64,000 nucleotides of DNA from Mobula hypostoma (taxonomy: Eukaryota), in the NCBI RefSeq assembly GCF_963921235.1, contig NC_086097.1, forward strand, positions 24,926,001 through 24,990,000, in the 5' to 3' direction. The position numbers were made by a program, and so were the translations under genes. Each line of letters opens with the position of its first letter. Within the stretch, counting starts at the first letter, position 1. This document shows positions 11,985 through 64,000 of the stretch, one piece after another. A model generated the notes under the pieces. That model was not told the origin of the DNA. It saw nothing but the letters and a program-made list of their open reading frames with translations, and did not search any database.

Positions 11985-12313
11985 GATGGGGTGATTGATA
12001 AGTTTGTGGCCTAAGGTAGAAGGAGATGAGTTATACAGCTCTCGTTACATGCACATGCAATTCAACTCTTTGAGTGAAAATGCAGAAAGTTTGAAGTTTT
12101 TCCTCATCTCCTTCTAATTTAGGCCACGAACTTATCAATCACCTCTGCTGTGGACCATTTCTGGATGTCCAAGACGCTGACTTCTACAAAGAAGGGATCC
12201 GCATGCTCCACGACCACTGGACTAAGTGTGTAAATGTAGGAAAAATAAATGTGCTAGGTTTTCTAAAATTGACTCCTTCTACCTTAGGCCACGAACTTAT
12301 CAATCACTCCTGG
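11985..12313 (+). mobile_element. Non-autonomous mariner-derived element (MITE)
   Basis: ~40-bp TIRs (gtgattgataagtttgtggcctaaggtagaaggag / ctccttctaccttaggccacgaacttatcaatcac); TA on both flanks; mariner C-terminus FYKEGIRMLHDHWTKCVNVG. Confidence 0.9.
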
Positions 12314-20935: not shown

Positions 20936-22142
20936 GGCTGAAAGAAGATCATAGTTGGGAGGTTAACATCGAAGGATACACGTTGTACCAAAAGGACAGG
21001 CAAGTAGGGAGAGTGGGGTACGGTGACTCCTTTGGTAAGAAATAAAATCAAATCCTTTGAAAGAGGTGACACAGGATCGGAAAATCAGAATCCTTGAATG
21101 GTGGTGCTGGCTCAATGGGCTGAATGGCCTACTCCTGCACTGATTGTCTATTGTCTATTGTCTACTGTCTTGTGGGTAGAATTAAGAAACTACGAAGATA
21201 AAAATATCCGGATGGGAGTGAAATACAGGCCTCCCAACGTTAGCCAGGGTGTGGGCTATAGATTACAACGGGAGATAGAAAAGGAATGCAAAAAGGGCAA
21301 CGTTATAATAGTAAATTCAGTGTGCAGGCTCATTGGGTAAATCAGACTTCACTGTGAAAGACACTAACGGTATGCCAGAAATTTGAGAGTGGCAGAGGAC
21401 AGAAGTGGGTGCAGTTGCTGTTACTAAGGAAAATGTGCTTGGGAAGCTGAAAGATCTGAATATAGTTAAGTCACCTTGGACCAGATGGACAACACTCCAG
21501 CATTCTGGAAGAGCTGGCTGAAGAGATTGTGGACACATTAGTAGTAATGTTTCAAGAATCACCAGATTTAAGGAATGGTTTCAGAGAACTGGAAAATTGC
21601 ATATGTCGCTCCACTCTTTAAGAAATTGTGGAGGCAAAAGAAAGGAAATTTAGGCCAGTTGCCTAACTTTAGTGATTGGGAAGATGTTGGATTCCAAAAT
21701 TAAGGATGAGATTTTGGGGTACTTAGAGGAACATGATAAAAATAGACCAAAGAAATCTTGCCTACAAATCTGTTGGAATTCTTTGAGGAAATAACAGGCA
21801 GGATAAACAAAGGAGAGTCAATAGATATTGTTACTTGAATTTTCAGAAGGTCTTTGATAAGCTGCCATACATGAGGCTCGTAAACAAGATAGGAGCACAC
21901 AGTGGCCATTTGCAAGCAAGACTAAGTAAGCTAGGTGGAGGGGCAAATTAGGAGAATAGGCAAAGAAGTGACAGACGGAATATAGTGTAGGGAAATACAT
22001 GATCATGCACTTTAGTAGAAGGAATAAAGGTGTGGACTATTTTCTTAACAAGGAGAAAATTAAGAAATCAGAAATGCAAAGGGACTTGGGAGTCCTTACG
22101 CAGGATATCCTAAAGGCTCGCTGGCAGGGAAAGCAAATGCAA

Positions 22143-22563
22143 TCAACAGACACAAAATGCTGGAGGAACTCAGCAGGCCAGGCAGCATCTATGGATAAAA
22201 GTACAGTTGACGTTTCACTGAGGAGTAGATTTGAAAGATTCATCACCTCCCTCTGGTGCTCCTCCCTGCCCCCCCCCCTTCTTCTTTCTTCCATGGCCTT
22301 CTGTCTCTTTCACCACTCAACTTCTTAGGTCTTTGCTTCATCCCTCCCCCTCCAAGTTTCACCTATTGCCTGGCGTTTCTCTCTCCCCTCCCCTCACCTT
22401 TTAAATCTACTCAGCTTTTTCTCTCCAGTCCTGATGAAGGGTTTTGGCCCAAAACGTCGACTGGACTTTTATCGATAGCTGCTGCCTGGCCTGCTGAGTT
22501 TCTCCAGTATTTTGTGTGTGTGTTGCTCGGATTTCCAGCATCTGCAGATTTTCTCTTGTTTGT
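22143..22563 (+). mobile_element. Penelope-derived non-coding insertion with inverted 5' segment and 13-bp TSD
   Basis: TSD aaagcaaatgcaa at 22130-22142 and 22564-22576; 22143-22216 is an inverted copy of ~22450-22525. Confidence 0.9.
22426..22463 (+). ncRNA. Minimal type I hammerhead ribozyme motif (GAAA mutated to AAAA)
   Basis: CAGTC-CTGATGA-AGGGTTTTGGCCC-AAAAC-GTC-GACTG; stem I CAGTC/GACTG. Confidence 0.65.
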
Positions 22564-23239
22564 AAAGCAAATGCAACGTTAGCTTTCATTTCAAGAGAAC
22601 TAGAATGTAAAAGCAAGGTTGTAATGCTGAAGCCATATAAAGCATTGGTCTTATAAATCTGAGTCTTTATAAGATCAAGACACTTGGAATATTGTAAGCA
22701 ATTTTAGGCCCCGTATCTAAGAACAGATGTGCTGGCATTGGAGAAGGTCCAGTGGAAGTTCATGTGAATGATTCCAGGAATGAAAGGATTAACGTATGAG
22801 GAATGTTTGATTACTCTGGGCCTGTACCCTCAGGAGTTTAGAAGAATGGGGGGTGGGGGGGGGAATCTTATTGAAACCTGTTGAATATTGAAAGTGGAAG
22901 TGAAGAGGATGTTTCCTGTGGTGGCAAAGTTTAGGACCAGAGGGCACAGTCTCGGAACAGAGGGATATCCATTTAGAACAAAGATGAGGAGATATTTATT
23001 TAGCTAGGGAGTGGTGAATCTGTGCAATTCATTGCCTCAGACGGCTATGGAGGCCAAGTCATTGAGTATATTTAAAGAAGAGGTTGATAGGTTCTTGCTT
23101 AGTAAGGGTGTCAATGGTTACGGGGAAAAAGGTTAAGAATGGGGTTAAATCATCCACGATAAAATGGCGGAGCAGATTCAGCAGGCTAAATGGCCTAATT
23201 ATGCTCTTATGTCTTATGGACTTCTAGACTAACATCTTT

Positions 23240-23846: not shown

Positions 23847-24309
23847 CTGCTCCTCCCATCCTCCATCTTCCTTCTCCCCTCAGTTGCTCCCCCTACCCTC
23901 CTACATCCTTTCTCAGCACAACAGGCCTCCCCTCAATGAGTTCTGTGACTGCAGGCCCCGTTACCATGGTGATCTGTCCAGGCTGCTTCACCGCTTAAAA
24001 CTCATTAAAGTGTGGGGACCTGAATGTCCAGGGATATCAAATGCAATTTTTAAAATTAATACATATTCAAATAAAATTTTGAAGATATTTTACAGGAAAA
24101 GTTAAACCACACCAGCTGGTGTTAACGTAGAACAAGTGAAGCACAAGGACAGTCTTCTCAGCCCAGTATGCCTGTGCCGACCATTATACCGAACCAAGCT
24201 GATCCCGTCTGCCCGCACACGAGCCATATACCCCCCCACCCCACCCCCTGTCCTTTCCCTGATTGTCCTTGTGCCTGGCTAAGTGCCTTTTAAACATTGG
24301 TATTGTAAA

Positions 24310-24805
24310 TACAAGAGATTCTGCAGATGCTGGAAATCCAGAATAACGCACACAAAATGCTGGAGGAACTCAGCAGGTCAGGCAGCATCTATGTTGGTGT
24401 TTTGGGTCAAGACCCTTCTATTGCTATTGTCTCAGCTTTTAAGCAGTTCCCTGGCAATAGGTTCCAGTTACTTATCACTCCCTTTGCAAACAACATTGAA
24501 ATGCATTTCCTTTATACTTTCATTTTCTCAGCTTAATTGAATGCCCTTTAGTATTAGATATTTCCATCCTGGGAAACAGTCTCTGATTATCTACTCTATC
24601 TTTGCCTCTCAGAATTTAATACTCTTCTATCAGATCTCCCCTCAGCCTCTGATGTTCCAGAGGAAACAACCCATGTTTATCCAAAATGCCCTCATAGCTC
24701 ATACCCTCTAATCAAGGTAGCATCCTGGCAAATCTCTCCTGCATTTTGTCTAGAACCTCCACATCCTTCCTAGAATGGGACAGCCCAAAAGGCACACAAT
24801 ACAGA
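24310..24805 (-). mobile_element. Penelope pLTR piece (24310-24420) and CR1 3' fragment (24430-24805)
   Basis: ctgcagatgctggaaatcc..ggcagcatctat; antisense RKDVEVLDKMQERFARMLP. Confidence 0.75.
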
Positions 24806-25059: not shown

Positions 25060-26147
25060 TTTGACCTTGTTGCAAAGGGAAAGTCTGTCCATAACGAGCA
25101 GGATTTCACAGTGTCCTACCGTTTTTAATTCCAATCCCCATTCCTATTTTAACATGTTGTTCCAAGGCTTCCTCTACTGCCATGATGAGGCCACCCTCAG
25201 GTTGGAGGAGAAACCTTTCATATTCTATCTGGATAATTTACTGTAATGTTCCCCCTCTGCTTCTCTGTTCATCCATTCTCCATTCTGGCTCCCCTCTTAC
25301 CTCTTCTCTTCTCCTCACCTGTCCATTACTTTCCTCTGGTGCCCCCCACCTTCCCCCCATGGTCTATTCTCCTCTCCTACCAGATTTTTTCTTCTTCACC
25401 CCTTTACCTTCCCACCTATCGCCTCTGAGCTTCTCACTTCATCCCTATACTCCTCTACCCACATATAAGACCATAAGACCATAAGACAAAGGAGCAGAAG
25501 TTGGCCATTCGGCCCATCAAGTCTGCTCCGCCATTTTATCATGAGCTGATTCATTCTCCCATTTAGTCCCACTCCCCCGCCTTCTCACCATAACCTTTGA
25601 TGCCCTGGCTACTCAGATACCTATCAATCTCTGCCTTAAATACACCCAATGACTTGGCCTCCACTGCCACCTGTGGCGACAAATTCCATAGATTCACCAC
25701 CCTCTGGCTAAAAAATTTCTTCACATCTCTGTTCCGAATAGGCGCCCTTCAATCCTTAAGTCATGCCCTCTCGTACTAGACTCCCCCATCATGGGAAACA
25801 ACTTTGCCACATCCACTCTGTCCATGCCTTTCAATATTCAAAATGTTTATATGAGGTCCCCCCTCATTCTTCTAAACTCCAAGGAATACAGTCCAAGAGC
25901 GGACAAACGTTCCTCATATGTTAACCCTCTCATTCCCTCTCAACCCATATCTTCCTTTTCACCCGGCTTCACCTATCACTTTCTAGCATGTACACCCTCC
26001 CTTCCCCCAAACTTCTCATTCAGGCTTCTTCCCCCTTCCTTTCCAGTCAGGGTGAAGGGTCTCAACACAAAACGTAAACAGTATGTTCCTTTCCATAGCG
26101 GCTGCCTGATATGCTGAGTTCCTCCAGCATTTTCTATGTGTTACTGT
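25060..26147 (+). mobile_element. Penelope 3' fragment and pLTR, with nested antisense CR1 3' end (25465-25938)
   Basis: FNSNPHS..LYCHDEATLRLEE; degenerate hammerhead at 26044-26081; nested CR1 begins ataagaccataagaccataaga. Confidence 0.85.
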
Positions 26148-38012: not shown

Positions 38013-40733
38013 TTGGGGTTTAAACTAGAGTTGCAGGGGGATGGGAACCAGAGAGCCAGAACAGTTTGTGGAGAGGTTGTGGAGGCCGATGGTGGTAAGA
38101 CCTCAGAGAAAGTTAGGAATCAAAAGGTTGAGCATGGTGTGACTAGAGTCCTGAGCCGCCTGTATTTCAATGCAAAAAGTATTGTTGGAAAAGTGGATGA
38201 TAGTGCTGAAGATGAGGTAGCTAGTTTACAAACAGAGGCAATGTGTAGTGAGGAGAGGCTGATTATAGGGCAAAATTGCAGTCAACAGGATGAGTTGCAA
38301 CATAAAAGGCAGACAAAATCAAAAAGGGTGAGTGCAGGGCAGAAGGTATTGTATTTGAATGCACGCAGTATACGGAATAAGGCAGATGAACTTGAAAGCC
38401 CAGTTGCAGATTGGTAGGCAACGCTGAATCATGACTGAAAGTTTATAGCTGGGTGCTCAATATCCAAGGATACACATTGTACTGGAAGGATGGGCAGGAA
38501 GGCAGAGGAGAGGCATTGCTCTGTTGATAAAAAAAATGAAGTCAAATCATTAGAAAGAGGTGACATGGGGTGTTGAATCATTGTGGATAGAGCTAAGGAA
38601 CTGCAAGGGTAAAAGGATCCAGATGGGAGTTGTATACAGACCCCCAAACAGTAGTAGGGATGCGGCCTACAAATTGCAATGGGAGATAAAAATCACATGC
38701 CAAAAGGACAATGTTATAATAGTCATGAAGGACTTCAATATGCAGGTAGATTGTTGAAAAGCAGGTTGGTGCTCAGTTACAGGAGGGGGAATTTCTAGAG
38801 TGCCTACAAGGTGGCTTTTTAGAGCAGCTCATGGTTGAGCCCACTGGAGAAAGGCAATTCTGGATTGGGTGTTATGCAGTGAGTCAGAATTCATTAGAGA
38901 GCTTAAGGTAAAAGAACCCATAGGGGAAGTGATCATAATATGATCAAATTCACCCTGAAATTTGAGAAGAAGCTAAAGTCAGATGTGTCAGTAATACAGT
39001 GGAGTAAAGGGAGGCATGAGAGAGGAGTTGGCCAGAACTGATTGGAAAAGAACGGACAGGAATGATGGCAGAGCTGCAATGGCTAGAATTTCTCGAAGCA
39101 ATTCAGAAGGCACAGGATATATACATCCCAAAGAGAAAGATGTATTCTAAAGGAAAGATGACACACCCACGGCTAACAAGAGATGTTAAAGCCAAAGAGA
39201 GGGCAAAAAATAGTGGAGAGTTAAAGGATTGGGAAACTTTTAAAAACCAACAGAAAGCAATTTTAAAAGTCATTAAGAAGGTAAAGATGGTATACGAAAG
39301 TAAGGTAGCCAATAATATTAAACGGAATACCAAAAGTTTCTTGTGTTTGTATATAAAATGTAAAAGAGAGACGAAAGTGGATACCGGACCATTGGAAAAG
39401 GATGCTGGAGAGAGGTAGTAATGGGGGCAACAAAATAACAAATAGGCTGAATAAGTATTTTGCATCAGTCTTCACTGTGGAAAACACTCACAGTGTGGTG
39501 GAAGTTCAATGTCTCAGGGGACATGAAGTGTGTAAAGTTACCATAACTAGAGAGAAGGTTCTTGGGAAATTGAAAGGTCTGAAGGTGGATAGGTCACCTG
39601 GACCAGATGGTGTACACCCCAGGGTTCTGAAAAAGGTGGCTGAAGAGATTGTGGAGGCATTAGTATTGATCTTGCAAGAATTAATAGATTCAGGAATAGT
39701 TCAGTGGTTAGAAAGATGTTGGAGTCGATTATTAAGGATGAGGTCTCAGGGTACTTGGAGGCACATGATAAAATAGGCCATAGTCAGCATGGTTTCCTCA
39801 AGGGAAAATCTTGCCTGAGAAATCTGTTGGAAATCCTTCAGAAATAACAAGCAGGACAGACAAAGGAGAATCTGTTATATTCCATATTTGGATTTTCAGA
39901 AGGCTTTTGACAAGGTGCCACACATGAGGCAGCTTTACAAGCTGTGAGCCCATGGTATTACAGGAAAGATTCTAGCATGGATAAGGCAGTGGCTGATTGG
40001 CAAGAGGCAAAGAGTAGGAATACAGGGAGCCTTTTCTAGCTGGCTGCTGGTGACTAGTAGTATTTCACCGGTGTCTGTGTTGGAACCGATTCTTTTTATG
40101 TTACATGTCAATGACTTAGATGATGGAATTGATGGCTTTGTTGCAAAATTTGCAGACAATATGAAGATAGGTGCAGCAGTAGGTTGTTTTGAAATAGAGC
40201 GGCTACAAAAGGATTTAGATAATTAGGAGAATGGGCAAAAAAAATGGCAGATGGAACAATGTATGGGGAAGTATATGTCATGCACTTTGGTAGAAGGAAT
40301 AAAAGCGTAGACTATTTTATAAACAGAATTCAGAAGAATGAGAGGTGACCTCATCAAAACCTTTCGAATGGTGAAAGGCCTTGACAGAGAGGATGTGGAG
40401 AGGATGTTTCCTGTGGTGGGAGAGTCTAAGACCAGAGGGCACAGCCTCAGAATAGAGGGGCATCCTTTTAGAATGGAAATGAAGAGGAATTTCTTTATCC
40501 AGAGATTTGTGAATCCGTGGAATTCTTTGTGATAGGCAGCTGTGGAGGCCAAGTCTTTATATATATTTAAGGAAGAGGTTGATAGGTTCTAGATTGGTCA
40601 CGGGCTGAAGGGATACAGGGAGAAGGCAGGAGATTGGAGCTGAGAGGAAAATTGGATCAGCCATGATGAAATGGCGGAGCAGACTCAATGGGCCAAATAG
40701 CCTAATTCTACTCCTATATCTTATGGTCTTATA
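38013..40733 (+). mobile_element. 5'-truncated chimeric-type CR1
   Basis: ORF 38013-38417 contains both LYFNAKSIVGK and LYLNARSIRNK; RT pieces; cttatggtcttat tail. Confidence 0.92.
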
Positions 40734-42562: not shown

Positions 42563-45500
42563 AATGATGGTCAGCATGGATGATTTGGGCCGAAGGGCCA
42601 GCTTCCGTGATGTATTATTCTATAACTATGACTCTGTACCCCTATCCACATGCATCAGCCGTTTTTATCTGCTATCTACGCAAGTTCCTTCAGCCATCTC
42701 TTCCTATCATACACTTGACAGGCAAATAATCTTTTCTGAAGAAAATGCTGAGCGCTCGTCTGATCACTGGACGTTGATTCATGGGGCTCGTAAGTCTTGC
42801 CAATGAGATTAGAATACAATCAATTAACCTCCCCTCTCTCCGTTACACTTGTCATTTATGCCTGACACTCTGGTTGCAGAAACGTTTCATCCCTGAAACT
42901 TGAGTGAGAGAAGGCGAAAAGCTGTAGGGAGTTTTTTTTTCTTTTTCTCACAGTTTATTTATTGTTTTTCCTTCTATATATTTGCTCCATTAGGACAGTA
43001 GACATGCTCCTCTTGTAGGATAGGGGAAGGCAGGGAGCCCTCCAGTGTCCCTGACGAATACATCAGAGAGAAGTCCATCCAGCTGCAGCTTCTAACACGC
43101 CGCATTAAGGAGTTGGAGCTGGAACTGGATGAACTCCAGATCATTTGAGAGGCTGAAGGGGTGATAGATAGGACATGTAGAGAGGTAGCTACACCCAAGG
43201 TGCAGGACAGAGGAAACAGGATGACAGTCAGGAAGGGGAAAAGGGTTAACGAGCCAGTGCAGAGTACCCCTGTGGCCATCCCCCTCAACAACAGGTATAT
43301 CACTTTGGATACTGTTGGGGGGATGACCTAAACAGAGGAAAGGCATAGTGGTCAGGTCTCTTGCACTGAGTCTGGTTCTGTGACGCAGAATGGAAGCGGG
43401 AAGAAGAGGTGAGCTGTGGTGATAGCAGATTTGTTAGTTAGGGAAATAGAAAGGTATGAGATAGACAAGAATGAGATTCCCGGATGGTATGTTCCTTCCC
43501 AGGTGCCAGGGTCCAGGACATCTTGGATTGAGTCCTCAGCATTCGTAAGTGAGAGGGTGAACAGCCGGAAGTCGTGGTCCATGTAGGTACCAATGACACA
43601 GATAGGAAGAGTGACGAGGTTCTGTGAAGTGAGTTCAGGGATTTAGGTGCTAAGATAAAGGTCAGGACCTCCAGGGTTGTGATCTCAGGATTGCTACCTG
43701 TGCCATGTGTCAGTGAGGCCAGACACAGGAAGATTATACAGTTTATCACGTGGGAAGGAGTTGGTGTAGGATGGAGGGTGACAGATTCTTCAGTTATTGG
43801 GCTCTCTTCGTGGGAAGGTGGTGCCTGTACAGAAGAACAACTGAACTGGAGAGCGACTAACATCCTCGTGGGATGGTTTGCTTGTGCTGGGGTGGGTGTG
43901 GTTTAGAGTTGCAGGGGGATGGGAACCAGAGTGCCAGAACTGATAGCGGAGAGGTTGTGGTGGCAGACGTTGTTAAGACCTCAGACAAAGTCAGGAATCA
44001 AGTTGAGCATTGTGCGACTAACGTCCTGAGCTGTGTATCTTTCAATGCAAGAAATATTGTACAAAAAGCAGATGAGCTCAGGGCATGGATCAACACCTGG
44101 AATTATGATATCATAGTCATTAGTGAAATTTGGTTGCACAAGGGGCAGGATTGGCGGCTGAGTATTCCAGGGTTCCGTTGTTTTAAACGCGACAGAGTGA
44201 GAGGGATTAAAGGAAGAGGGATGGCGTTGCTAGTCAGGCAAAATGTGATGGCAGTCTTCAGAAGGACAGACTGGAGAACTCAACTAGTGAGGCTTTATGA
44301 GTGGAACTGAGGAATAAGAAAGGTATGATCACGTTAATGGGGCTATATTACAAAGCAGCCAAAAGTCAGCAGGATTTAGAGGAACAAACTTGTAGAGCGA
44401 TTGCAGACTGCTGCAAGAAACATAAGGTTGTTATAGTAGATAATTTTAGCCTACCACATATTGACTGGGAATCCCATACTGTAAAAGGACTGGATAGGAT
44501 AGAGCTTGTCGAATGCGTTCAGAGAAGTTTCCCTCCTCAGTATGTAGGAGTCCCAATGACAGTGTGCAATTCTTGTTCAGCTCTTAGACAGGAATGAGAC
44601 AGGGCAGGAGACAGAAGTTTCCAATGATCAAATGCTATTAGTTTCCAGCAGCCCAATCAGTGGCAGGAGCAGGCCACAGCAACAGGGTTTCTCGCAGGTT
44701 GGTGACACTTGCTTAAAAGGGACAGAAGGGACAAGCAGGTGACCATTGTCGGGGCAGCCATTGTTGGAAGTAGGCTAGTGGCAAGAGTAGGGGTGTCAGG
44801 CTTTCGCTCAAAGGAGGCTTTGGCTCAAAAGAGGCATAGGTTCTGGGTAAGTTTCTGTTCAGGTTCCCTTTTTTTTCTCCCTCACTGTACCCAGTGTAGT
44901 AAATGGCTGTTGTGTGTTCTTCATGCTGGATGTTGGAGTCCTGGGAGACCCAGACTCCCCCAGGGAACTACATCTGTGTGAAGTGCGTTGAAGACTGTGT
45001 TAGGGATCTGGAGCAGCAGCAGGATGGCTTTCGGCTTGTACGGGAGAGTAAGGAGGTAATTGATCAGAGTTACAGCGAAGTAGTCGCACCTAAGTTGCAG
45101 GGGGCGAGTATCTGGTTGACTATCAGGAGAAATGGAAATGTGAATAGGCAGCTAGAGCAGAGCACACCTGTGGCCATTCCTCTCAATAATAAGTATACTG
45201 TTTTGGATACCTGTGTGAGGGATGACCTCTCAAGGGAATGCCACAGAGACCGGGTTACTGGCACTGAGCTTGGGTCCATGGTGCAGAAGGGAAAGAGGGA
45301 GAAGAGGGGAGCAGTAGTGATAGAGGACTCAATAGTGAAGGGAACAGACAGGAGATTCTGTGGACATGAACGGGACATCCGAATGGTATGTTTCCTCCCA
45401 GATGCCAGGGTCAGGGACATCTCAGACCATGTCCACAGCATTTTGGAGAGGGAGGGAGAGCAGCCAGATGACTTGGTAATAATGACATAGGAAGGAAAAG

Positions 45501-46951
45501 CAATGAGGTTCTGAAAAGAGAATTTAGAGAGTTAGGTAGAAAGCAGAGAAGCAGGACCTCCAAGGTAGTAATTTCTGGATGGCCGCCTGTGCCACACACC
45601 AGTGAGTGTAGAAACAGGATGATATGGCAGATTGTGTGGCTGAGAAGCTGGCGCAGGGCTGCAGGTTCCTGGATCATTGGGATCTCTTCTGGGGAAGGTA
45701 TGACCTGTCCAAAAGTGACTGGTTCCACCTGAACCTGAGGGGGCCCAATATCCTCAAGGGCACATTTGTTAGAGATGTTGGGGAGGGTTTAAGCTAATTT
45801 GGCAGGGGGCTGGGAATTGGAATGAAGGGATCCAGAAAGGATGAATGGTGAAAAGGCAAAGATAGCGTGCAGTCAGACTGTCAGGAAGCGCAGGCAGATG
45901 AGAGGACAAAATTGCAGCCAGCAGGGTGAGTATCAGTGCATTAGGGATGCAAAACCAAAAAAGGTAACAAATACAGTACTCAAAGTTTTATATCTCAATG
46001 CACAGAGTATAAAAAATAAGCTGGATGCATTATTACAGATTGTCAGGTATGATGTTGTGGCCATCAGTGAATCGTGGCTGAAGGATGGTTGTAGTTGGGA
46101 GCTGAATGTCCAAGGTTACACGTTATATCGGAGGGATAGGAAGGTAGGCAGAGGAGGTGTCGTGGTTCTGCTTGTAAAGAATGGCAGCAGATCAGTAGAA
46201 AGATGTGACGTAAGATTGGAAGGTGTTAAATCCTTGTGGGTTGAGTTAAGAAACTGCAAGGATAAAAGGACCCTGATGGCAGTTATATACAGGCCTCCCA
46301 ACAGTAGCTGGGATGTGCACTACAGATTACAATGGGAAACAGAAAAGGCATGTCAAAAGGGCAATGTTATGATAGTCATGGGAGATTTCAACATGTAGGT
46401 CGATTAGGAAAATCAGGTTGGTAATGGATCACAAGAGAGTGAGTTTATAGAATGCCTACGAGGTGACTTTTTAGAGCAGTTGGTTTTTGAACCTACTAGG
46501 GGATCAGCTGTACTGGATTGGGTGTTACTGGAGGTGATTAGGGAGCTTAAGGTAAAAGAATCCTTATGAGAGGGTGATCACAATATGACTGAATTCAAGA
46601 TGAAATTTGATAGGGAGAAAGTAAAGTCTAACGTAGCGGTATTTCAGTGGAGTAAAGGAAATTACAGTGGTATGAGAGAGGAATTGGCCAAAGTAAACTG
46701 GAAGGAGCTGTTGGCAGGAATGATGTGAGTTTCGGGGGGAAATGAGGATGGTGCAGGATAGGTGTATTCCAAAAACAAAGAAATACTCAAATAGCAAAAT
46801 AGTACAACCGTAGCTGACAAGAGAACTCAAAGCAAATGTAAAAGCAAAAGGGAGAGCACACAGCAAAGCAAAAATTAGTGGGAAGATAGAGGATTGGGAA
46901 GTTTTTTTTAAAACTACAGAGAGCAACTAAAAGGATCATTAGAGGGAAAAG

Positions 46952-47051
46952 CAACACACATAAAAGTTGCTGGTGAACGCAGCAGGCCAGGCAGCATCTC
47001 TAGGAAGAGGTGCAGTCGACGTTTCAGGCCGAGACCCTTCGTCAGGACTCA
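46952..47051 (-). mobile_element. 100-bp Penelope-derived mini-insertion with 14-bp TSD
   Basis: TSD attagagggaaaag at 46938-46951 and 47052-47065. Confidence 0.9.
47013..47049 (-). ncRNA. Minimal type I hammerhead ribozyme motif, core intact
   Basis: AGTC-CTGACGA-AGGGTCTCGGCCT-GAAAC-GTC-GACT on the minus strand. Confidence 0.75.
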
Positions 47052-50000
47052 ATTAGAGGGAAAAGATGAAATATGAAAGCAAGCTAGCAAATAATATCAA
47101 AGTGGATAGTAAAAGCTTTTTCACATATGTAAAAATAAAAGGGAGATGAGAGTGGATATAGGACCACTAGAAAATGAGGCTGGAGAAATAATAACGGGGG
47201 ATAAGGAGATGGTAAATAAACTAATAATTATTTTGCATCGGTCTTCACTATGGAAGACACTAGCAGTGTGCCAGATGTTGAAGGGTGTGAGGGAAGAGAA
47301 GTGAGTGCAGTTTCTGTTACAATGGAGAAGGTGCTCAAAAAGCTGAAAGATCTAAGGGTACATAAGTCACCTGGGCCAGCTGATCTGCATCCTAGTGTTC
47401 TGAAAGAGGTAGAGGTAGAGATTGTGGATTCATTAGTAATGATCTTTCAAAATTCATTGGATTCTGGCATGGTGTCAGGCTGGAAAATTGCAAATGTTAC
47501 TCCACTCTTTAAGGAAGGAGGAAGGAAGCAGAAAGGAAATTACAGCCCAGTTAGCCTGACCTCAGTGGTTGGGAAGATGTTGGAGTCAATTGTTAAGGAT
47601 GAGGTTAAGGAGTACTTGGTGACACAGGACAAATTATGATAAAGTCAGCATGGTTTCCTTATGGGAAAAACTTGCCTGACGAAGCTGTTAGAATTCTTTG
47701 AGGAGATTACAAGTATAATAGATAAAGGGGATTCAGTGGATGTTGTATATTTGGACTTTCAGAAGGCCCTTGACAAGGTGTCACACATGAGGCTGCTTAC
47801 CAAGTTAAGAGCCCATGGTATTATAGGAAAGTTACTGGCATGGCTAGAGCATTGGCTGATTGGTAGGAAGCAGTGAGTGGGAATAAAAGGATCGTTTTCT
47901 GGTTGGTGGCCAGTGACTCGTGGAGTTCTGTAGGGGTCAGTGTTGGGACTGCTTCTTTTTATTCTGCACATCAAAGATTCGGATGATGGAATAGATGGCT
48001 TTGTTGCCAAGGTTGCAGATGACATGAAGATTGGTAGAGAGGCAGGTAGTATTGAGGACGTAGGTAGGCTGCAGAGGGATTTAGGCAGATTAGGAGAATG
48101 GGCAAGAAAGTGGCAAATGACATACAATGTTGGAAAATGCATGATCATGCACTCTGGTAGAAGAAATAAAAGTGTAGACTATTTTTTAAATGGGGAGAAA
48201 ATCCAAAAATCTGAGATGGAAAGGGACTTGGGAGTCCTTGTGCAGAAGACCCTAAAGGTTAGCTTGCAGGTAGAGTCGGAGGTGAGGAAGGCAAATACAA
48301 TGTTAGCATTCATTTCAAGAGGTCTAGATACAAGAGCAGGGATGTGGTGCTGAGGCTTTATAAGGCACTGGTGAGGTCTCACCTTGAGTATTGTGAACAG
48401 TTTTTGTCTTCTCATCTAAGAAAAGATGTGCTGGCATTGGAGAGGGTCCAGAGGAGGCTCACAAGGATGATTCCGGGAATGAAAGGAACAAGGATGAGAG
48501 GGAATCTCATCGAAACCTTTCGAATGTTGAAAGGCCTAAGTGTAGATGTGGGAAGGATGTTTCCTATGGTGGGGGAATCTAGGACAAGAGGGCACAGCCT
48601 CAAGATAGAAGGGTGTCCATTTAAAACAGAGATGCAGAGAAATTCCCAGAGGGTAGTGAATTTGTGGAATTTATTACCATAGGCAGCTAGTTTGTTGGGT
48701 GTATTTAAGGCAGAGCTTGATACGTTCTTGATTGGACACGGCATCAAAGGTTACGGGGAGAAGGCCAGGGAGTAGGGCTGAGGAGGAAAATAAAGGATCA
48801 GCCATAATTAAATGGTAGAGCAGACTTGATGGGTCATATGGCCTAATTCTTCTCCTATGTCTTATAGTGTTATGGTCTTATGGTTTCAAAGTAAATATGG
48901 AAAAAGATAGGTCTTGTCCGTTGGTTGAGATTCTAAATTGGATCTGATGGTATCAGAAAGGATCTGGAAAGTTCAGATTGGGACAGGCTGTTTTCTGACA
49001 AAGTTGAACTTGGTATGTGGGAGGCCTTCAAAAGTGAAATTTTGAGAGTACAGAACTTGTATGTGCCTGTCAGAACAAAAGGTAAGATAACAAGTGCAGG
49101 GGACCTTGGTTTTCAAGAGATATTGAGGTCCTGGTTAAGAAAACGAAAAAAGGGGTGCATTTCAGGTATAGACAGGTAGGAACAAATTATGTACTTATGG
49201 AGGTTAAGAAGTGCATGAGAAAGAAATAAGAAAAAAATCAGGAGGGTTAAAAGGAGGCGTGAGGTTTCCCTACCAGACATGGTGAAAGAAAATCCTAAGG
49301 GATTCTGCAGATATATTTTAAGAGCAAAAGGATTGCAAGGGACAAAATTGACCTCTGGAAGATCAGAATGGTAATATATACGTGGAGCCAAAAGTGATGG
49401 AGGAGATCTTAAATGGATTCTTTGCATCTGTACTTACTCAGGAGACCAACACAGAATCTATCAAATTGAGGCAAAGCAGCAGTGACTTCAAGTACCCTAT
49501 ACAGATTATAGAGGAGGAGATGCTGTCTTGAGGTAAATTAGGCCCTGACAAGATGTTCCCTTGGACCTGCAGGAGACAATTGCAGAAATTGTAAGGGCTC
49601 TAGCAGAGATATTTAAACCATCTTTAATGACAGGTGAGGTACGGGAGGATTGGAATATAGCTAATGTTGTTCCTCTGTTTAAGAAAGGTTCTAAGTATAA
49701 ACCAGGAAATTATTGGCTGGTGAGCCCAAGATCAGTAGTGGGAAAGCTATTGCAAGGTATTCTAAGGAACCTCATATGAGCATTTGGGTAGACATTGGCT
49801 GATTAGGGATAGTCAGCATGGCTTTGTGTGTGGTAGGTCATGTCTAACCAATCTTACAGAGTTTTTTCAAGGAAGTCACCAGGAAAAATGATGAAGGCAA
49901 GGCAGTGGATGTTGTCTACATGGTCTTTCTCTCTCTCTCTCTGTGACCTGGGTGCAGACCACACCAATGCCGCTACTCAGAGGCACCGGAGTTGGTGCCT

Positions 50001-50454
50001 TCATGTTGGCATTAAGGCAGCATGTAGTGAAACTGTGAGTGATTGTCTTGGATGTTTCTTTTGCAATCTCACGACCCTGTTGGACATTGATTACTGCAGG
50101 CCTGCTTCCCTTGTTTGGTGGTGAGACAGCAGAGTCGCCTCATTCGTAGCAAGGACTAGGCTTCAATCCTTGGGCTTGTGTTGCAGCGTGGCATCTGTGT
50201 TCGGTTGGGGATGGCCTCTCCCTTCAGTGCTGGACTGATAAAATTACAGGCTGGACTGCTGGGAACCAACAACTTGCAGGACATGTCGCTCAGGGTCTTG
50301 GATTAAAATTTCATTTTCTTACGTGACTATATTCTTAGTTTTTCTTTTATTTTGAATGCACGTGTATGTTTCGCACCTTGGCCGCAAAGAAACACTGTCT
50401 CATTGGGCTGCATCCACCTATGGCTTGAATGACAATTAAACGATTTGATTTGAT

Positions 50455-50825
50455 TTCTCCCCCTCTCCATCCCTCTCTATCTCTCTTCTTTCCCTCCTTT
50501 CTCTCTCATACCCTATTCCTCTACTCATCTCTCTCGATCCCTCTCAACATCTCTCTGCATACTTCTCCTGACCTCTCTCCATCTCTCTCCTTATCTCTCT
50601 TCTCTCTCTCTATCATGTTCCTCTCCCCTCCCCTCCCTCCTTATTACCAACTCTCACACTCTCTCTTTCTCTCCCCTGTGCTTCTCCTGTCTTTCTTCCT
50701 CTCTCTCCCTCTACCCTCTCCCCTCTCTCCATCTCCATCACCCCCACTGTCTCCCATCTTTCTCTGTCTCACTTCCCCCCCTCTCTCTCACCCACCTCTT
50801 CCTCTCTTCTTTCTCTCTTCCTCAC
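50455..50825 (+). repeat. Polypyrimidine (CT-rich) tract
   Basis: ~370 bp CT low complexity. Confidence 0.95.
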
Positions 50826-52295
50826 ACACACAAACACAGCGTTTTCTCAAATCTGTAAGCACAATCCCAGTGACAATCAATCACTTCTTCAATTTACTAA
50901 AATCATTATTACCTGTTCAACAGCACAGTGATTAATCAACTCTCTTCTCTCAATATTTTTGTTTGCATTGAAAAGACATTGCACACATACAACAAAGAGC
51001 CAGACACACGGACCCACACAATGCCCCACCCCTCTTCATCTCACCCCACTGATGTTGCTTCCTTCTTCCTTCTTTCTTGTTCACAGGCTCTCACATGTTT
51101 TTGTTTCATGGACTACACCCCAAGGTTCTGAAAGAGGTGGTTCAAGAGATAGTGGAGACATCAGTAATGCAAGGTTACACCACTCTTTAAGAAGGGAGGG
51201 AGGCAAGGATATTACAGGCCAGTTAGCCTGATCTCAGTGGTTGGGAAGATGCTGAAGTCGATTGTTTAGGATGTGGTTTTGGGATACATGGACACACATG
51301 ATACAATAGGCCAAAGTCAGCAGAGTTTCCTTAAAGGAAAACCCTGCCTGACAAATCTGTTGGAATTCTTTGAGGAAATAACAAGCAGGGTGGATAAAGG
51401 AGAATCAGTGAACAGTGTGTACTTGGATTTCAGATGGCCTTTGACAATGTGTCGGACATGAGGCTGCTTAACAAGGTAAGAGTCCAAGGTATTACAGGAA
51501 AGATACTAGCATGGATAGACATTGGCTGATTGGCAGGGGGCAAAGAGCGGGAATGAAAGGAGCCTTTTCTGATTGGCTGCTGGTGACTAATGGTGTTCCA
51601 CAGAGGTCGGGGTTTGGACTGCTTCTTTAGTACATTGTATGTCAATCATCTGGATGATGGAATTGATGGCTTTGTGCCAAATTTTGTGGACGATACGAAG
51701 ATAGGAGGAGGGGCAGGTAGTGGTGAGGAAGCAGAGAGGCTGCAGAAGGGAGACAGATTGGGAAACGCATAACGAAGTGGCAGATGGAATATAGTGTCAG
51801 AAGTGTATATTCATACACTTTGGTGTAAGGATTAAAAGCATAGACTATTTTACAAACAGGAGAAAAATTAAAACTCTGAGGGCCCCTCATTTAAAAAAGG
51901 ATATGCTGATATTGGAGAGGGTACAGAGAAGATTTACAAGAATGATTTTGGGAATGAAAGGCTTATTGTATGAGAAATGATTGATGGCTCTGGGCCTGTA
52001 CTTGGAGAAACTTAGAAGAATGGGGCGGGGGAATGTCACTGAAACCTATCAAATGTTGAAAGGCCTTGAGAGAGTGGATTTGAGGAGGATGTTTCCTATG
52101 GTGGGGGGGGTCTAGGACCCCAGGGCACAGCCTCAGTATAAAGGGATACACATTTAAAAAGGAGATGAGGGGGAAATTCTTTAAGACCATAAGACCATAA
52201 GACAAAGGAGCAGAAGTCAGCCATTCGGCCCATCAAGTCTGCTCCACCATTTTAACATGAGCTGATCCATTCTCCCATTTAGTCCCACTCCCTCC

Positions 52296-52757
52296 CAGCA
52301 CTTATCCTTGTCAGCAGAACAAGTGCTACACATGCCCTTACACTTCCTCCCTCACCACCATTCAGGGTCCCAGACAGTCCTTCCAGGTGAGGTGACACTT
52401 CACCTGTGAGTCGGCTGGGGTGATATACTGCGTCCGGTGCTCCCGATGCGGCCTTCTATATATTGGCTAGACCCGACGCAGGCTGGGAGACCGTTTCGCT
52501 GAACACCTACGCTCTGTCCGCCAGAGAAAGCAGGATCTTCCAGTGGCCACACATTTTAATTCCACGTCCATTCCCATTCTGATCTGTCTATCCACAGCCT
52601 CCTCTACTGTTAAGATGAAGCCACACTCAGGTTGGAGGAACAACACCTTCTATTCCGTCTGGGTAGCCTCCAACCTGATGGCATGAACATCGACTTCTCT
52701 AACTTCTGTTAATGCCCCTCCTCCCCTTTGTACCCCATCCCTTATTTATTTATTTAT

Positions 52758-52821
<64 letters not shown>

Positions 52822-53163
52822 CTCCCTCCGTCCCTCTCACTATAACTCCTTGCCCATCCTCTGGGTTGTTTTCCCCCCCTCCCCCTTTCTTTCTCCCTAG
52901 GCCTCCTGTCCCATGATCCTCTCCCTTCTCTAGTCTGGTATCCCTTTTGCCAATCAACTTTCCAGCTCTTAGATCCACCCCTCCTCTCCTGTCTTTTCCT
53001 ATCATTTCAGATCTCCCCCTCCCCTCTCACTTTCAAATCTTTTACTATCTCTTCTTTCAGTTAGTCCTGACGAAGGGTCTCGGCCCGAAACATCAACTGT
53101 ACCTCTTCCTATAGATGCTGCCTGGCCTGTTGCGTTCCACCAGCACTTTTTGTGTGTGTTGCT
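52296..53163 (+). mobile_element. Penelope-like element 3' part: GIY-YIG endonuclease pseudogene and pLTR
   Basis: Translates HFTCESAGVIYCVRCSRCGLLYIG*TRRRLGDRFAEHLRSV..VATHFNS; (CT)n at 52762-52815. Confidence 0.92.
53063..53099 (+). ncRNA. Minimal hammerhead ribozyme motif (cleavage region CpG-decayed)
   Basis: AGTC-CTGACGA-AGGGTCTCGGCCC-GAAAC-ATC-AACTG. Confidence 0.65.
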
Positions 53164-53529
53164 TGATATGTTCTTGATTAGTCAGGATGTGAAAGGTTGT
53201 GGGGAGAAGGCAGGGGAGTGGGGTTGAGTGGAAAATTGGATCAGCCATGATGAAATGGCAGAACAGACTTGATGGGCCGATTGCCTGACTCTGCTCCTAA
53301 ATCTTATGGTGTTATGGTCTTTTTTAGCAGCAGGTCATGATGCTGGGCTCACACTCAATCTGTATACTGAAAGCTGTAGCCTTCCTCCAGACAATTTAGG
53401 CTGACACACTGAGGGATGCTGCCCAAAATATCATCTCTTTATTCCCCTCCATAGATGCTGCCTGAGCTGCTGAGTTCCTTCAGTATTCCATGTATTTACT
53501 GCTGAATTTGCAATTTGTCCTTGGTGAGT

Positions 53530-54362
53530 TGGGTCTGTGCTGTGGCCAACTAAACTAATCCCCTCTGCCTACACAATCCTTCCATTTCCCTCACGTTTGT
53601 GTGCCTATCTAAATGTATTTACCTCCAGCACCACCCCAGGCAGTGCATTCCTGTGTCAAAACCTGCCCTTCACATCTCCTTTGAACTTACCCCTCTCACC
53701 TTAAGTGCATGCCCTCTGATATTAAACATTACAACCCTGAGAAAAAGTTGCTGTCTGTCTACGCCTCTCATAATTTTATAAGCCTCTATCAGATCTTTCC
53801 TCAGCCTCCACCACTCCAGAGAAAGCAGCTCAAGTTTGTCCAACTTCTCATCTTCATGCATGCCCTCTAATCCAGGTAACATCCTAGTGCACCCGTTCCA
53901 AAGCCTCCACATCCTTCTCACAATGGAGCGACCAGAACTGTATATAATACTCCAAATGTGGCCTAAATGGAGTTTCAGAAAGCTGCAACATAACTTCCTG
54001 ACTTTTGAACTTAATTCCTTGCCTAATAATGGCAAACATGCCTTTAGCTTTCATAACCAGGTTCATAGCCTGCGCAACCACTTTCAGGGAGCTATGAACC
54101 TGGACCCCAAGATCCATTTGCTCCTCAGCACTCTTAATACTCTTGCTGTGAACACCATACTGTCTCTTTACATTTGACCTGCCAAGGTGCAACACTTTAC
54201 ATTTGGCTGTGTTAATCTCCATCTGCCATTTCTCCTCCCATACTTGCAAATGATCTATATTCCGCTGTATTTTTTGCCATTCTTCTACACTATCCACAAC
54301 ACCACCAATTTCCATATCGTCTGCAAATCTACTAACCCACCCATCCATATTTTCATCCAGGC
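53530..54362 (-). mobile_element. CR1 3' fragment
   Basis: ORF 53884-54348 VSRFADD..RPHLEYYIQFWS. Confidence 0.9.
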
Positions 54363-58514: not shown

Positions 58515-61500
58515 TATAATATTGATGTGACTAGGACACTGCTGTAGATTGAACAACCACGTTTATTCACCAGACTTCCATTTTTACTTCCTCACGTCCT
58601 GACGTCATACACACTCTGACGCTATGAATACTCACACAATACATTACATCCTCCTTCTCAAGATTTTTTTTTACAACACTGTGAATTACCAAAACAATGC
58701 CTCTAGATATGTCCTTCTTACAGTGCAACAACCATGACATAAACTAAAAAAATCTTACCTTCTTGTACTGTATTCTGCACTGTATCTTACAATACTAACA
58801 GCAGTGTATTTTCTTTTACTAACATAGACTAATAAACCTTTTATTTCACACCTTGGAACTTATAACATGTGTGACTTTGCCTCAAACTGTGTGAGACTGT
58901 ATGTATGTCTAGTCTCTGTATTTAGCTGGAAGCTTGCCTTGTCTCCCAGACCGTGTGTGATACAACTGTGACTGTGCTTGTCCTTCATCAATGTCAGTCT
59001 CTCGAGTGACCTCTGTGTCTTTGGGGTCTGCATCACTCTTGGTGTCGTTTGTTTCCATGTCTGTATATGTGGAAATGTCCTGTGCATCTGTACGTGGAAA
59101 CTCCCTCTCGCCTGTCTTCAGCAGATGCTTCCTGTTCCTCCTGTAGACTCTTCCATCTGGCGTGCAAACTATGAAGGATCTTGGTTGCTGATGTCTGTTC
59201 ACAACCACAGCTGGTTGCCAAGTGTCTCCTCTCTGTATTCTGACATTTTCACCTGTATGCAGATCTGGCAACTGTCATGTATGTCTGTCAGAGTAGCTCT
59301 TTTGCTTTATTTGCTTGTACTTTTGCTTGTCATGTACGTGAGCATTACCTTCAGGAGTCAGTAGAGTTGTGGATGTTGGCAGTTTGGACTTCAGACGACA
59401 TCCCATCAACAGCTGCGCAGGACAGAACCCCACACCCTCAATCGGTATGTTGCGGTATTCAAGCAGAGCAATGTAAGGGTCACCGTTGCTGCTTTGTGCC
59501 TTCTTGAGCATGTTCTTGATAGTTTGTACAGTTCTCTCTGCTTGTCCATTAGACTGAGCGTGCCCTGGACTGAGTAACATGTTGAAATTCCCAGCTTTCT
59601 GAGAACCCTCTGAACTCACCACTGGCATGTTGTGGACCATTGTCACTATCGACAATATCTGGAATACCATGTCTTGTGAACGTTGACTTCATTGCGGTAA
59701 TGACAACTCGACTGGACGTGTCACTTAACTTGGTGATCTCCGGATATTTTGAGTAGTAGTCCACACAAAGCAGATATTCTGCACCATTGTAGTGAAAGAG
59801 ATCTGTGCCAATCTTCTCCCATGGTCTTCCTGGTAGTGGGTGGGGAAGCAGAGGCTCTCTTGGATTGCTGTTTTTGTTTTCATTACAGACAGCACACTGA
59901 GACACAATGTCCTCTATCTGAGTTGACATGCCTGGCCAATATAGAATGTCCCTTGCTCTTTCTTTACATTTCACTATCCCCAAGGTGTGACTCATGAATC
60001 CTTTGAGCATTTCCTGTCTCATTTGGTTTGGTACAATGAGTTTTGCCGTTTTGAACATTAGTCCTGATGCATAGCTGATTTCCTCTTTAAATGTCCAGTA
60101 TTTCTGCATTTCCTTTGGAACATCTTTTCTTTCTGTTGGCCATCGATTCATTGTAATGTCTCTTAGCATTTGCATTTCAGGATCACCTGCAGTCACTTTC
60201 CTGAACAAGTTCAACTTCTCCTCAGAGATGGGTAGCTGAGGTGTAACCCAGTTGACCTCCAGCTCTCTTCCTAGCAACTCTTCCTTTTGCTCTTTGAGGT
60301 AAGCACGGCTCAAAGCATCAGCAATGTACTGTTCTTTTCCTGGCTTAAAGGTGACTGTGAGAGTGTACCTCTGTAGCCTGAGAAGCATCTTTTGCAGCCT
60401 CATAGGAGCTTGGTGGAGCGGCTTTTTGAAGATGTTCTCAAGTGGTTTGAGATCACTCTCAACCTGGATTTCTTTGCCATATACATATTGGTGGAACTTC
60501 GCACACCCATAAACGATGGCGAGTAATTATATGGTTATATGGTTAATTCCTTCTCAATTTGAGCATATCGGCATTGACAGTCCGTAAGTGCTCGTGATCC
60601 ATACGCCACAGGCCTCCCATCCTGCAGTATAACAGCTCCTATTCCCTCCAAACTGGCATCCACAGACATCATCACCGGTTTATTGACAAATAGAACTTGA
60701 GTGCTGGTGCATTGGTAACCAACTGCTTCAATGTGTCAAAACTTTTCTTTTGTTCGTCTTCCCAATGCCATTCAGCGTTGCTCTCTAGTAGCTTTCGGAG
60801 TGGAGCGCTGACCTCTGATAAGTTGGGAATGAATTTGGCAAGATACTGTATTATGCCCATGAACCTCAATAGTTCTTGCTTGTCTTCGGGTGGTAGTAGC
60901 TGTACCACAGCTCTGACCTTTTCATCATCTGGTTTTGGCCCATCAGCACTGAGTACATGACCTATGTATTTGATCTCTGTAGTTCTGATCTTACATTTAC
61001 TTTTGTTCAGTTTTAGGTTGTACTCACGTGCTCTCTCCAGGAGCTTCCTCAGTCTCTGATCATGTTCCTCAATTGTGTCAGCCCATATCAGCAAATCATC
61101 AATGATGCTGACCACCCCGTCCAGGCCTTCAATCACTTGTGCCACGGATCTCTGGAATACCTCTGATGCAGAAGAAATCCCAAAGGGTAGACGCAGGAAA
61201 CGATATCTCCCTATGGGCGTTTTGAAAGTACATAATTTGGAATTTCCTTCATCCAGCTTGATCTGCCAGAAACCTTGATTTGCGTCTAATACTGAAAAGT
61301 ATTTTGTATTAGGCATGCGGGAGACAACCTCTTCAACCGTGAGCAGCAGATAGTGCTCCCTTTTGATGGCTTGGTTGAGTCTTGTGGATCCATGCAAATC
61401 CTTGCCTTTTTTTCTGTGACCGTCACCATACTATTCACCCAGTCGTTTGGTTTTATTTGTCTTGTTATGACTCCCATCTGTTCCATTCTGTGTAGCTCCT

Positions 61501-63035
61501 TCACTACTTGATCCCTGAGAGCTACTGGAATCTTTCTCGGCGCATGCACGACTGGTGCAATAGTTGGATCAATCTGGATATGGTGTTTCCCTGGTAAACA
61601 TCCTAATCCAGAAAACAAGTCATCAAAGTCTTTGAGAATGTCATTTTCTTTTTCAACACCATAGATTCGCTTCACCAGGCCTAGCTTTGTGCATGTTGCT
61701 TTGCCCAGTATTGCTGAAACATGTTGCTGCACTATTTCAAACCCAGTCTTGTATTGTTGACCTTTGTACACACAGTTGAGTGCTTTTTTGCCCAGTGGCA
61801 CCGTCTTGTGGCCGAAATATGCAGAAAGCTTGCAGGTGGATTTTCTCAGTCTTCCTCTGATGTCCAGTGAGTTGGATGTTTCTGCTGACATTACATTGCA
61901 CTTTGTCTCAGTGTCAAGCTTAAATGTCACATTCCTCCTGTTTATTATCAGATCTTGAGTCCAATCATCTTCATCCTCCATCTCTGCATTGTCAATATTC
62001 TTGATGCAGACCTCCTGTTCCACTTCAACTGTGCCAATGAGTATGTTACTGTTGCCCTCACTCTGTTCCACAGCATGCATTTTCCTTGCGTGCTCCTTCG
62101 ATTTGCACATCTTTGCAAAGTGATTTCTTTTCTGGCATAACTTGCATGTCTGACCAAAGGCTGGACATTTTCTGTATCCATGTTTATAACCACATCTGTT
62201 GCAGTTAATTTCCTTTAGATCATTCTGTGGAGCTGGCTTTGTCCTACTCTTGCCAGTTTTCACAGTTACTTCTATTTTCGATTTCGTCTCCCCCCCAGCG
62301 GGTTTCACAGTTTTTATTTTGTGCACTTCAATCTCTTCATTGAGCACTTTAATCTGACTTGACGTGATCTCGCTGGCACGGCAAACATCAATTCCCTTTT
62401 CTAATGTAAGATCCGCCTCTCTCAATAGCCTGCCTCTCACTTGATCATCCTGTATGCCGCATACAATCCTGTCACGTATTAAAGAGTCATGCAGTTGTCC
62501 GAACTCACAGTTTTTTGCCTTGTTTTTCAAATCTGTTACATAGGCGTCTATGGTCTCCATTGGTCCTTGAGCTCTCGTGAAAAACCTGTGTCGGATGTAC
62601 GCAGTAATCTTGAAACTTTTTCTTCAACACTTCGATTTTATCTTGCTCATCATCTTGGAAGACAAACATGTTGCAAATCTTTATTGCCTCTTCCCCCGCC
62701 ATATGCAGAAACGTAGCACGTTGCACTTTCTCCGTCTTTTCAGCTACGCTGCTAGCGGTGCAAAACAGCTCAAACTTCTAGATCCATATTTTCCAGTTCT
62801 CAGCAAGATTACCTTGTAGGCTTAAACTTGACTGTGGCTGTAACTGTGACATCTTTTACATGTCTTCTCTTCCTTTTTTTTCACGATTTCTTCTGACATC
62901 ATGTAATATTGATGTGACTCGGATACCACTGCAGATTGAACAACCACGTTTATTCACCAGACTTCCACTTTTATTTCTCCACGTCCTGACGTCATACGCA
63001 CTCTGACGCTACGAATACTCACACAATACATTACA
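58515..63035 (-). mobile_element. Structurally complete Gypsy LTR retrotransposon with 134-bp LTRs
   Basis: LTRs 58515-58648 and 62902-63035; TSD gaggg/gaagg; PBS TGATGTCAGAAG (tRNA-Leu-like) at 62890-62901; PPT at 58649-58659. Confidence 0.95.
58909..62852 (-). pseudogene. Frameshifted gag-pol of the nested Gypsy
   Basis: gag LIRDRIVCGI with CNRC/CKLC..HFAKMC; protease LDTE; RT LDANQGFWQI..RLPFG..IIDD; RNase H; integrase HHCC and D,D(35)E region. Confidence 0.92.
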
Positions 63036-64000
63036 GAAGGCAAGTTCATCCCAGCACTGGTTAAAATGGGGGTACTGGAAACTCTGCTGTACATTCCAGC
63101 TATTTTGGGTTGCTATGTAGACCTGAAACAGTGTGGGATCTTTTCTGGTTTCCCTGTAGATCATCTCTGCCATAATAGGGAGACTTTCAATTTGCATTAG
63201 AGAGAATATATCAAGAGAAGTGTCCTATTTTGTAAATTTTTCAGGTATTTCCTTTCCCAGGGGTAAATGGGACAATCCATCAGTTTTTCCATGATTAGTC
63301 ATCCTGTTGAATTTGATCTTGTAATTGTGTCCTCCATGAAACACAGCCCATCACTGCTGTTAATGGAACACTTCTGTGGATCAAAAATGGACACTCAATG
63401 TTTGATGGTCAGCAATGAGAGCAAACTCTTTCCCATACAGGTACTGATTGAAGTGTTTTACACCCCAAACGAGGTTCAAGACCTCTCTGTCAATAAGAGA
63501 GTAATTTTTCTCTGCAGGGGTAAGGGAATGTGATACAGATGATATGGGGCGTTCACTTCCAACCTGTTGTAGCCTGTTATAGTAATTGACAAATCCTAAA
63601 GAAGACTCTGACATGTTCTTTGGCCTTGGGGCGTCCACCACTGCCTGAATTCTCCCAGCACACTTGTGTAAATCTTGTGTGTCAATGGTGTGATCACAGC
63701 AAATGATGCTTGGTTGAAAGAATTCACTCTTCTTGCATTGTGCTCTGAGCCCATAATCTTCTAATCTTATTGAGACTTTGGAGAAGTTCCTTGTTATCCT
63801 TACTGTTAACAATAATGTTGTCTCGATAACACACTGAGTGCCTGGACAGCCTTCTGATACCTGGTCCATACAGATTCTGCCAGAGTGTGGGTGCAGACAC
63901 TACTCCAAAAATAAGCCTATTATTGTGATAAAGCTCTTTCTGAGTGTTTATGGTGAGAAACATTCCGGACTCTTCTTCCATCTCTATCAGCTTCAGCTAA

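Follow-up and report, generated by a model that had tools for sequence, protein, structure and literature searches.

The 64,000-nt stretch of Mobula hypostoma DNA analysed here (contig NC_086097.1, positions 24,926,001 to 24,990,000; hereafter the window) carries at 46952–47051 a 100-bp insert that contains, on its minus strand, a minimal hammerhead ribozyme motif. The insert lies antisense within a decayed open reading frame 2 (ORF2) of a long interspersed nuclear element (LINE) on the plus strand (45826–47600, continuing past 47600), which was recognised by a Pfam Exo_endo_phos match (E 7e-6 at 45826–46395) and by paralogues in the window, and which we take to be of the CR1 type. It is enclosed by two identical 14-bp direct repeats on the plus strand (46938–46951 and 47052–47065) that cannot be extended; exact 14-mers recurring 60–300 bp apart give 18 overlapping matches in the window, at about six loci. 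A paralogous LINE copy at ~39203–39385 aligns with both flanks over a single insert-sized gap and therefore carries the empty site. The segment 46952–47051 is a genuine insertion with a target-site duplication (TSD), and the original prediction, which had described a 100-bp unit between perfect 14-bp repeats, was right in this respect. The letters CTT at the 3′ junction (46949–46951) fit both the target and the 3′ continuation of the element, so that the insert measures 100–103 bp and the duplication 11–14 bp.

The 3′ unit of the insert is present in 11 copies in the window (11 of 17 nhmmer matches, retained at E ≤ 1e-5, the six weaker ones being left out). Five copies extend upstream, one of them into a GIY-YIG frame. 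This longer copy, which belongs to the subfamily of the insert, lies at 52293–53166 on the plus strand and comprises a decayed GIY-YIG end, a pyrimidine-rich pseudo-long terminal repeat (pseudo-LTR), a hammerhead with two core changes and a tail-less 3′ end. Its stem I begins at 53063; it is 90% identical to the insert over 99 columns (53063–53161) and reaches ~770 bp upstream, via the pyrimidine-rich region, into the broken GIY-YIG frame. The GIY-YIG domain scores E 3e-4, under the Pfam cut-off; the frame also holds the CCHH motif, whose two cysteines lie between GIY and YIG (here VIYCVRCSRCGLLYIG, then two histidines), and a CxxxxCxxC linker. The best homologues are ray proteins (Mobula and Hypanus by their source names), 81–90% identical, found as 13 matches among 45 candidates, and by eye these carry YIDD and YKPT (YYKPT) motifs of a reverse transcriptase (RT) upstream of GIY-YIG. 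Pfam reported an RT domain on none of the six ray proteins scanned, which hold only the C-terminal part of the RT, and its GIY-YIG match was sub-threshold or borderline in five of them. Because a 90%-identical copy runs into a GIY-YIG frame whose ray homologues have RT motifs, the insert is, as judged by sequence, the 3′ end of the pseudo-LTR of a very common Penelope-like element (PLE), and its proposed Penelope origin is supported. The parent element may be of the Neptune type; its CxxxxCxxC linker, an extra Zn-finger between RT and endonuclease, is common to Neptune and Nematis.

Two further observations concern the longer elements. The PLE endonuclease sequence also turns up in three ray gene models, annotated as mucin-2, divergent protein kinase domain 1C and chitinase domain-containing 1, which reflects either an annotation artefact or exonisation. 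In addition, another dispersed repeat (52182–52293, 25466–25576 and elsewhere; ~110 bp matched, at most 95% alike) interrupts two long PLE copies. It has ten or so copies and a short tandem at its beginning, and ARAGORN found no tRNA gene in it.

At its 3′ end the insert stops without the 37-bp tail seen in some relatives. This is best illustrated by a composite insertion of a sister subfamily in a LINE (22130–22576, with a 13-bp duplication), in which an inverted tail-less arm (22217–22144) is joined to a forward tailed copy (22427–22562). The 74-bp inverted arm stops where the insert stops, and the forward arm runs 37 bp farther. This single insertion thus has two 3′ ends separated by 37 bp, in agreement with the optional 30–40 bp tail and the inverted partner copies described for PLEs (Craig et al. 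2021; PMC3846280; published sources are cited throughout for their accessible parts), the optional tail being accounted for by two internal RT starts (PMC11167929). Contigs of four runs were aligned to positions 52826–53230 of the long copy at 85% likeness (59,844, 59,518, 29,142 and 5,033 contigs); those departing from the element at 53157 number 185 in run X4 and 425 in run X9 and become heterogeneous after a few letters. Run X15 may be of RNA and is uninformative about expression. The 3′ end of the insert is the common tail-less end and not a special tail. A second very short copy in the window (24307–24419, minus strand) is tailed, has an 11-bp duplication with one mismatch and an internal deletion of ~15 bp, and starts inside the catalytic box.

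The hammerhead motif, at 47014–47049 on the minus strand, matches a strict descriptor of the minimal type I form. This descriptor has one match in the whole window, and at least one match arose in none of 200 Markov simulations. Stem I (AGUC/GACU, 4 bp) pairs 47049–47046 with 47017–47014; the CUGACGA box at 47045–47039 is followed by one bulged A; stem II consists of four pairs (47037–47034 with 47029–47026) with a CUCG loop and a G·U at its base; and GAAAC (47025–47021) leads into GUC, with the predicted cut between 47018 and 47017. Helix III is the palindrome ACGU alone (47022–47019), loopless, exactly as first described. The CUGANGA and GAAAN-NUH boxes, helices I and II and a palindromic 15.2–16.2 are all present, and this layout, together with published motifs (PMC4209133), supports the earlier assignment to the dimer-type minimal hammerheads of PLEs. 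The further claim of an intact core within 2 nt of the start of the insert must be qualified in one respect: the G10.1–C11.1 pair, called highly conserved in PLE minimal hammerheads (PMC4209133), is replaced here by a G·U wobble. The T allele that gives this wobble accounts for 25–43% of the depth in the DNA runs, C being the majority. Rfam reported no hammerhead family at its gathering threshold in the whole window, nor at E ≤ 10 in 46700–47300.

Folding predictions do not favour a working ribozyme in the insert as it stands. The predicted fold of the 100-nt RNA is no better than that of shuffled sequences (z 0.29), and stems I and II have pairing probabilities of ~0.03 within it. The isolated 41 nt favour a hairpin that pairs the core with the cleavage triplet (−11.2 kcal/mol, against −7.2 kcal/mol for the hammerhead layout). 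The dimeric hammerhead reaches −11.9 kcal/mol as compared with −30.7 kcal/mol for the best two-strand fold, a calculation that ignores tertiary contacts and is not used as evidence. In published work, minimal motifs were inactive as single units and weakly active as dimers (PMC4209133); the motif of Anolis required protein for cleavage (PMC11167929). As part of the explanation that we favour overall, the ribozyme in the insert is probably a passenger: a single motif without a helix III, predicted to fold as an inactive hairpin. Two features of the same RNA may be mentioned in passing. A second palindrome, GUCGAC (within 47014–47022, minus strand), overlaps the cleavage site and forms the stronger duplex (−7.5 kcal/mol as compared with −1.7 kcal/mol for ACGU), so that it could compete with the dimeric helix III. 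Nearer the 3′ end, a short hairpin is predicted at 46970–46986 (minus strand), whose arms, in an alignment read by eye, are also present in copies of the sister subfamily, where they enclose a different loop.

The 5′ end of the insert lies immediately beside stem I. In each of the three DNA runs the biggest pile of upstream loose ends (409, 357 and 347 contigs), among the 24 rows listed (1,484 more lie beyond these), falls at 53063, where stem I begins. These loose ends are long and heterogeneous (median length 76–108, agreement 0.38–0.41), whereas the others listed inside the element in the DNA runs are short and uniform (median 9–33, agreement 0.63–0.82). Several points weigh against taking the whole pile as insertion junctions. 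Sister subfamilies lose similarity at 53063 as well, which confounds the pile-up, and the consensus of the X4 loose ends equals, at 25 of 30 letters by eye, the sequence upstream of the copy at 37330; since this consensus resembles a sister pseudo-LTR, part of the pile would reflect subfamily divergence. A simulation that mixed four sister upstream sequences with random flank gave an agreement of 0.40 at ~30% sister sequence, the rest being unrelated flank, although the agreement measure is undefined and the calibration is based on four copies. By this rough estimate, about two thirds of the loose ends at 53063 may be true junctions. On this basis, the outer edge of stem I is likely to be a preferred 5′ end. 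The alternative in the original prediction that the insert is an extreme 5′ truncation is thus partly upheld: the copy is truncated, but the calibrated loose ends indicate that truncation probably occurred at a favoured position, the edge of stem I, and not at random.

Taken together, we consider it probable that the insert corresponds to the final 100 bp of a PLE, likely dead on arrival, made from the RNA of an autonomous element, and that its cDNA probably ended at the preferred edge of stem I. The GIY-YIG endonuclease of the PLE would have nicked the LINE, and its RT would have primed at the tail-less internal start, with or without the aid of the 3-nt match, and copied through the uncut ribozyme. 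Indeed, insertion in vitro does not need hammerhead cleavage, uncut RNA being the main template (PMC11167929). The RT would then have halted at stem I, most likely since the template RNA physically begins there, and a second nick 14 bp off would have produced the duplication. A template beginning at stem I is favoured because an RT blocked by RNA structure should halt on reaching the 3′ base of the hairpin and not beyond it, and because fold-back of the cDNA is weak. Such fold-back as a stop signal is unsupported (−2.6 kcal/mol, with 181 of 200 shuffles equally good). Cleavage by the ribozyme as the origin of the 5′ end was likewise rejected, the insert starting 34 nt ahead of the cut.

Such a template could owe its 5′ end to transcription initiation, to trimming or to splicing. 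With regard to splicing, AG follows a pyrimidine tract at 53059 and 53063, but five more such sites occur upstream in the pseudo-LTR, and none of the 15 joints listed (of 67) lands at stem I. In the Penelope element of D. virilis the start lies ~120 nt upstream and an intron ends at helix I (PMC4209133; PMC2377424). The insert carries TG before stem I (47050–47051, minus strand) where the long copy has TT; this G is either untemplated, derived from a cap or taken from the next letters of the target. A cap origin may be suggested by analogy with L1, whose full-length insertions bear a cap-derived G (PMC11702581).

It is tempting to extend this analogy and to place a capped transcription start at the first base of stem I, so that an RT priming internally would run off the 5′ end and integrate a 'strong-stop' cDNA made of the ribozyme and the 3′ end, the G being the copied cap. 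The A of stem I lies at +1 of the initiator pattern YYANWYY in three of the five long copies, and the internal promoter in the pseudo-LTR of Penelope lacks a TATA box (PMC2377424). However, YYANWYY occurs about every 90 nt across the window, with 2–9 matches per copy; the extra G is seen in one copy and could derive from the next letters of the target; the consensus of the loose ends ends in C, not G; and the start in D. virilis lies well upstream, as noted above. The evidence for a transcription start or cap is thin, and we regard this reading as doubtful.

Alternatively, cDNA synthesis may have ended by chance beside stem I, at a base of no special significance. The copies in the window speak for such random truncation and against a preferred end. 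Their starts, counted from the base with which stem I begins, are ~−770, −470, −420, −190, −45, −2 (the insert), +9, +10, +12, +23 and +58, as we read them from the alignments, the old copies being uncertain; only 1 of 11 thus starts at stem I, and the remaining starts are scattered. Four starts do fall within 15 nt and five within 26 nt, but with p values of 0.04–0.09 under three null models and a span chosen post hoc. The copies starting at +9 and +10 lack the CUGA box, and one of them has an 11-bp duplication. PLEs are typically subject to heavy 5′ truncation (Craig et al. 2021), the pseudo-LTR-like consensus of the loose ends at 53063 points the same way, and the next letters of the target resemble the junction, so that microhomology could have fixed the end. 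What chance truncation leaves unexplained is the long and heterogeneous character of the loose ends at 53063, unlike that of the others listed inside the element, and we consider it unlikely.

The original prediction had also raised the possibility of a discrete ribozyme-bearing mini-retroposon mobilised in trans. Such an element would be a non-autonomous monomer of the retrozyme kind, which has source copies of its own and depends on the PLE protein. The clean ends and TSD of the insert, and the likely excess of ends at stem I, would be compatible with this. Moreover, vertebrate non-LTR retrozymes derived from PLE pseudo-LTRs, with consensus sequences from 51 bp and many monomers, have been described (bioRxiv 10.64898/2026.07.22.740005), and pseudo-LTRs are able to act in trans (PMC3846280). 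A peak of 5′ ends at stem I, proposed initially as the test of a discrete family, fails to separate such a family from a preferred cDNA end of the parent. The alleles of the insert also bear on this question. It has the majority letter at 53092, 53095 and 53130, and its G at 53112 represents 46% (X1) and 54% (X4) of the depth, as compared with 0.2% in X9; markers 8, 15 and 164 nt upstream of stem I behave like 53112G (36–42% in X1 and X4, at most 0.6% in X9). Parallel marker shares up- and downstream of stem I would be most simply read as one young subfamily containing long and short copies. Against this, the linkage of the markers is inferred from their co-distribution across runs, unphased, and depth is not copy number; furthermore, marker depth relative to 53112G drops to 0.40–0.51 at −8 and to 0.32 at −164. 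This drop, steeper across the ribozyme than beyond, may reflect a large number of short copies, although mapping loss would account for it as well.

Other observations argue against a separate family. There is no tandem array at the locus (44000–54000), and no pol III A or B box was found inside the insert at one mismatch. No tRNA gene was found in the window and no Rfam match that would point to a short interspersed nuclear element (SINE), whose internal pol III promoter would be of tRNA, 7SL or 5S origin. The predicted cut would remove the first 34 nt of the insert rather than define its start, whereas a unit released by the ribozyme would start after GUC. Short copies elsewhere in the window begin within the catalytic box and so carry no functional motif. 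Accordingly, the mini-retroposon mobilised in trans is not supported and appears quite unlikely. A remnant of a longer insertion, shrunk by later deletion or recombination as described for solo pseudo-LTRs (PMC3846280), is very improbable, for the insert is directly flanked by two perfect copies of the duplication, the host LINE and its paralogue stay collinear through the site, and the solo pseudo-LTRs described there have no TSD.

Two other features of the window may be recorded here. An exact direct repeat of ~24 bp recurs 165 bp apart at 12119–12305, and the sequence between the repeats presumably resembles the end of a mariner-type transposon. At 59549–63899 (minus strand) lie long frames that by eye resemble the pol of an LTR retrotransposon (integrase-, RT- and protease-like), the longest of 445 amino acids.

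Much of what is seen at this locus has precedents. The motif is of the kind reported as minimal type I hammerheads in PLE pseudo-LTRs (Cervera and De la Pena 2014, PMC4209133), from which it differs by the G·U in place of G10.1–C11.1 and by a helix II of four pairs as compared with 7–8 in Schistosoma; the accessible text of that paper names no cartilaginous fish and gives no distribution of 5′ ends. Variable TSDs, an optional tail and inverted partners are shared with endonuclease-bearing PLEs (Poseidon of Anolis, PMC11167929; Craig et al. 2021; Adineta, PMC3846280), the TSDs of the Adineta Penelopes being 8–10 bp (PMC3846280). Likewise shared are an RT start that would lie ~100 nt downstream of the hammerhead and an insert containing the uncut ribozyme; the CxxxxCxxC linker of the long copy suggests the Neptune or Nematis type instead of Poseidon. 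A preferred 5′ end at stem I does not appear in the accessible parts of these three sources.

Animal non-LTR retrozymes (PMC7229834; bioRxiv 10.64898/2026.07.22.740005) are likewise short, non-coding and PLE-related, with a type I hammerhead and TSDs of more than 4 bp. They are defined, however, by tandem units and circular RNA in the same sources, whereas the insert is non-tandem and its hammerhead is minimal and not canonical, with a lone motif at the 5′ end, so that no unit-length RNA can be cut out. Tandem units each bearing a hammerhead were absent from 44000–54000, and the window holds one strict motif. A literature search covering titles and the beginnings of abstracts, with few subscription papers and main texts rather than supplements, returned neither a preferred 5′ end at stem I nor such a family in rays; the species lists in the supplements of PMC4209133 and bioRxiv 10.64898/2026.07.22.740005 may include motifs from cartilaginous fish. 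Scans with the family pattern gave no match in viral contigs, metagenome contigs or prokaryote genomes.

Minimal hammerheads, truncation, tails and inverted partners are thus already known for PLEs, and the insert is an ordinary PLE fragment with one testable lead, the preferred 5′ end. Cleavage by PLE hammerheads can be dispensed with in vitro (PMC11167929), and an end that falls sharply at stem I would mark a natural boundary of the RNA or cDNA. If a capped start at stem I were true, it would put the ribozyme at the 5′ terminus of the RNA of the element and would explain the huge numbers of solo hammerheads in vertebrate genomes.

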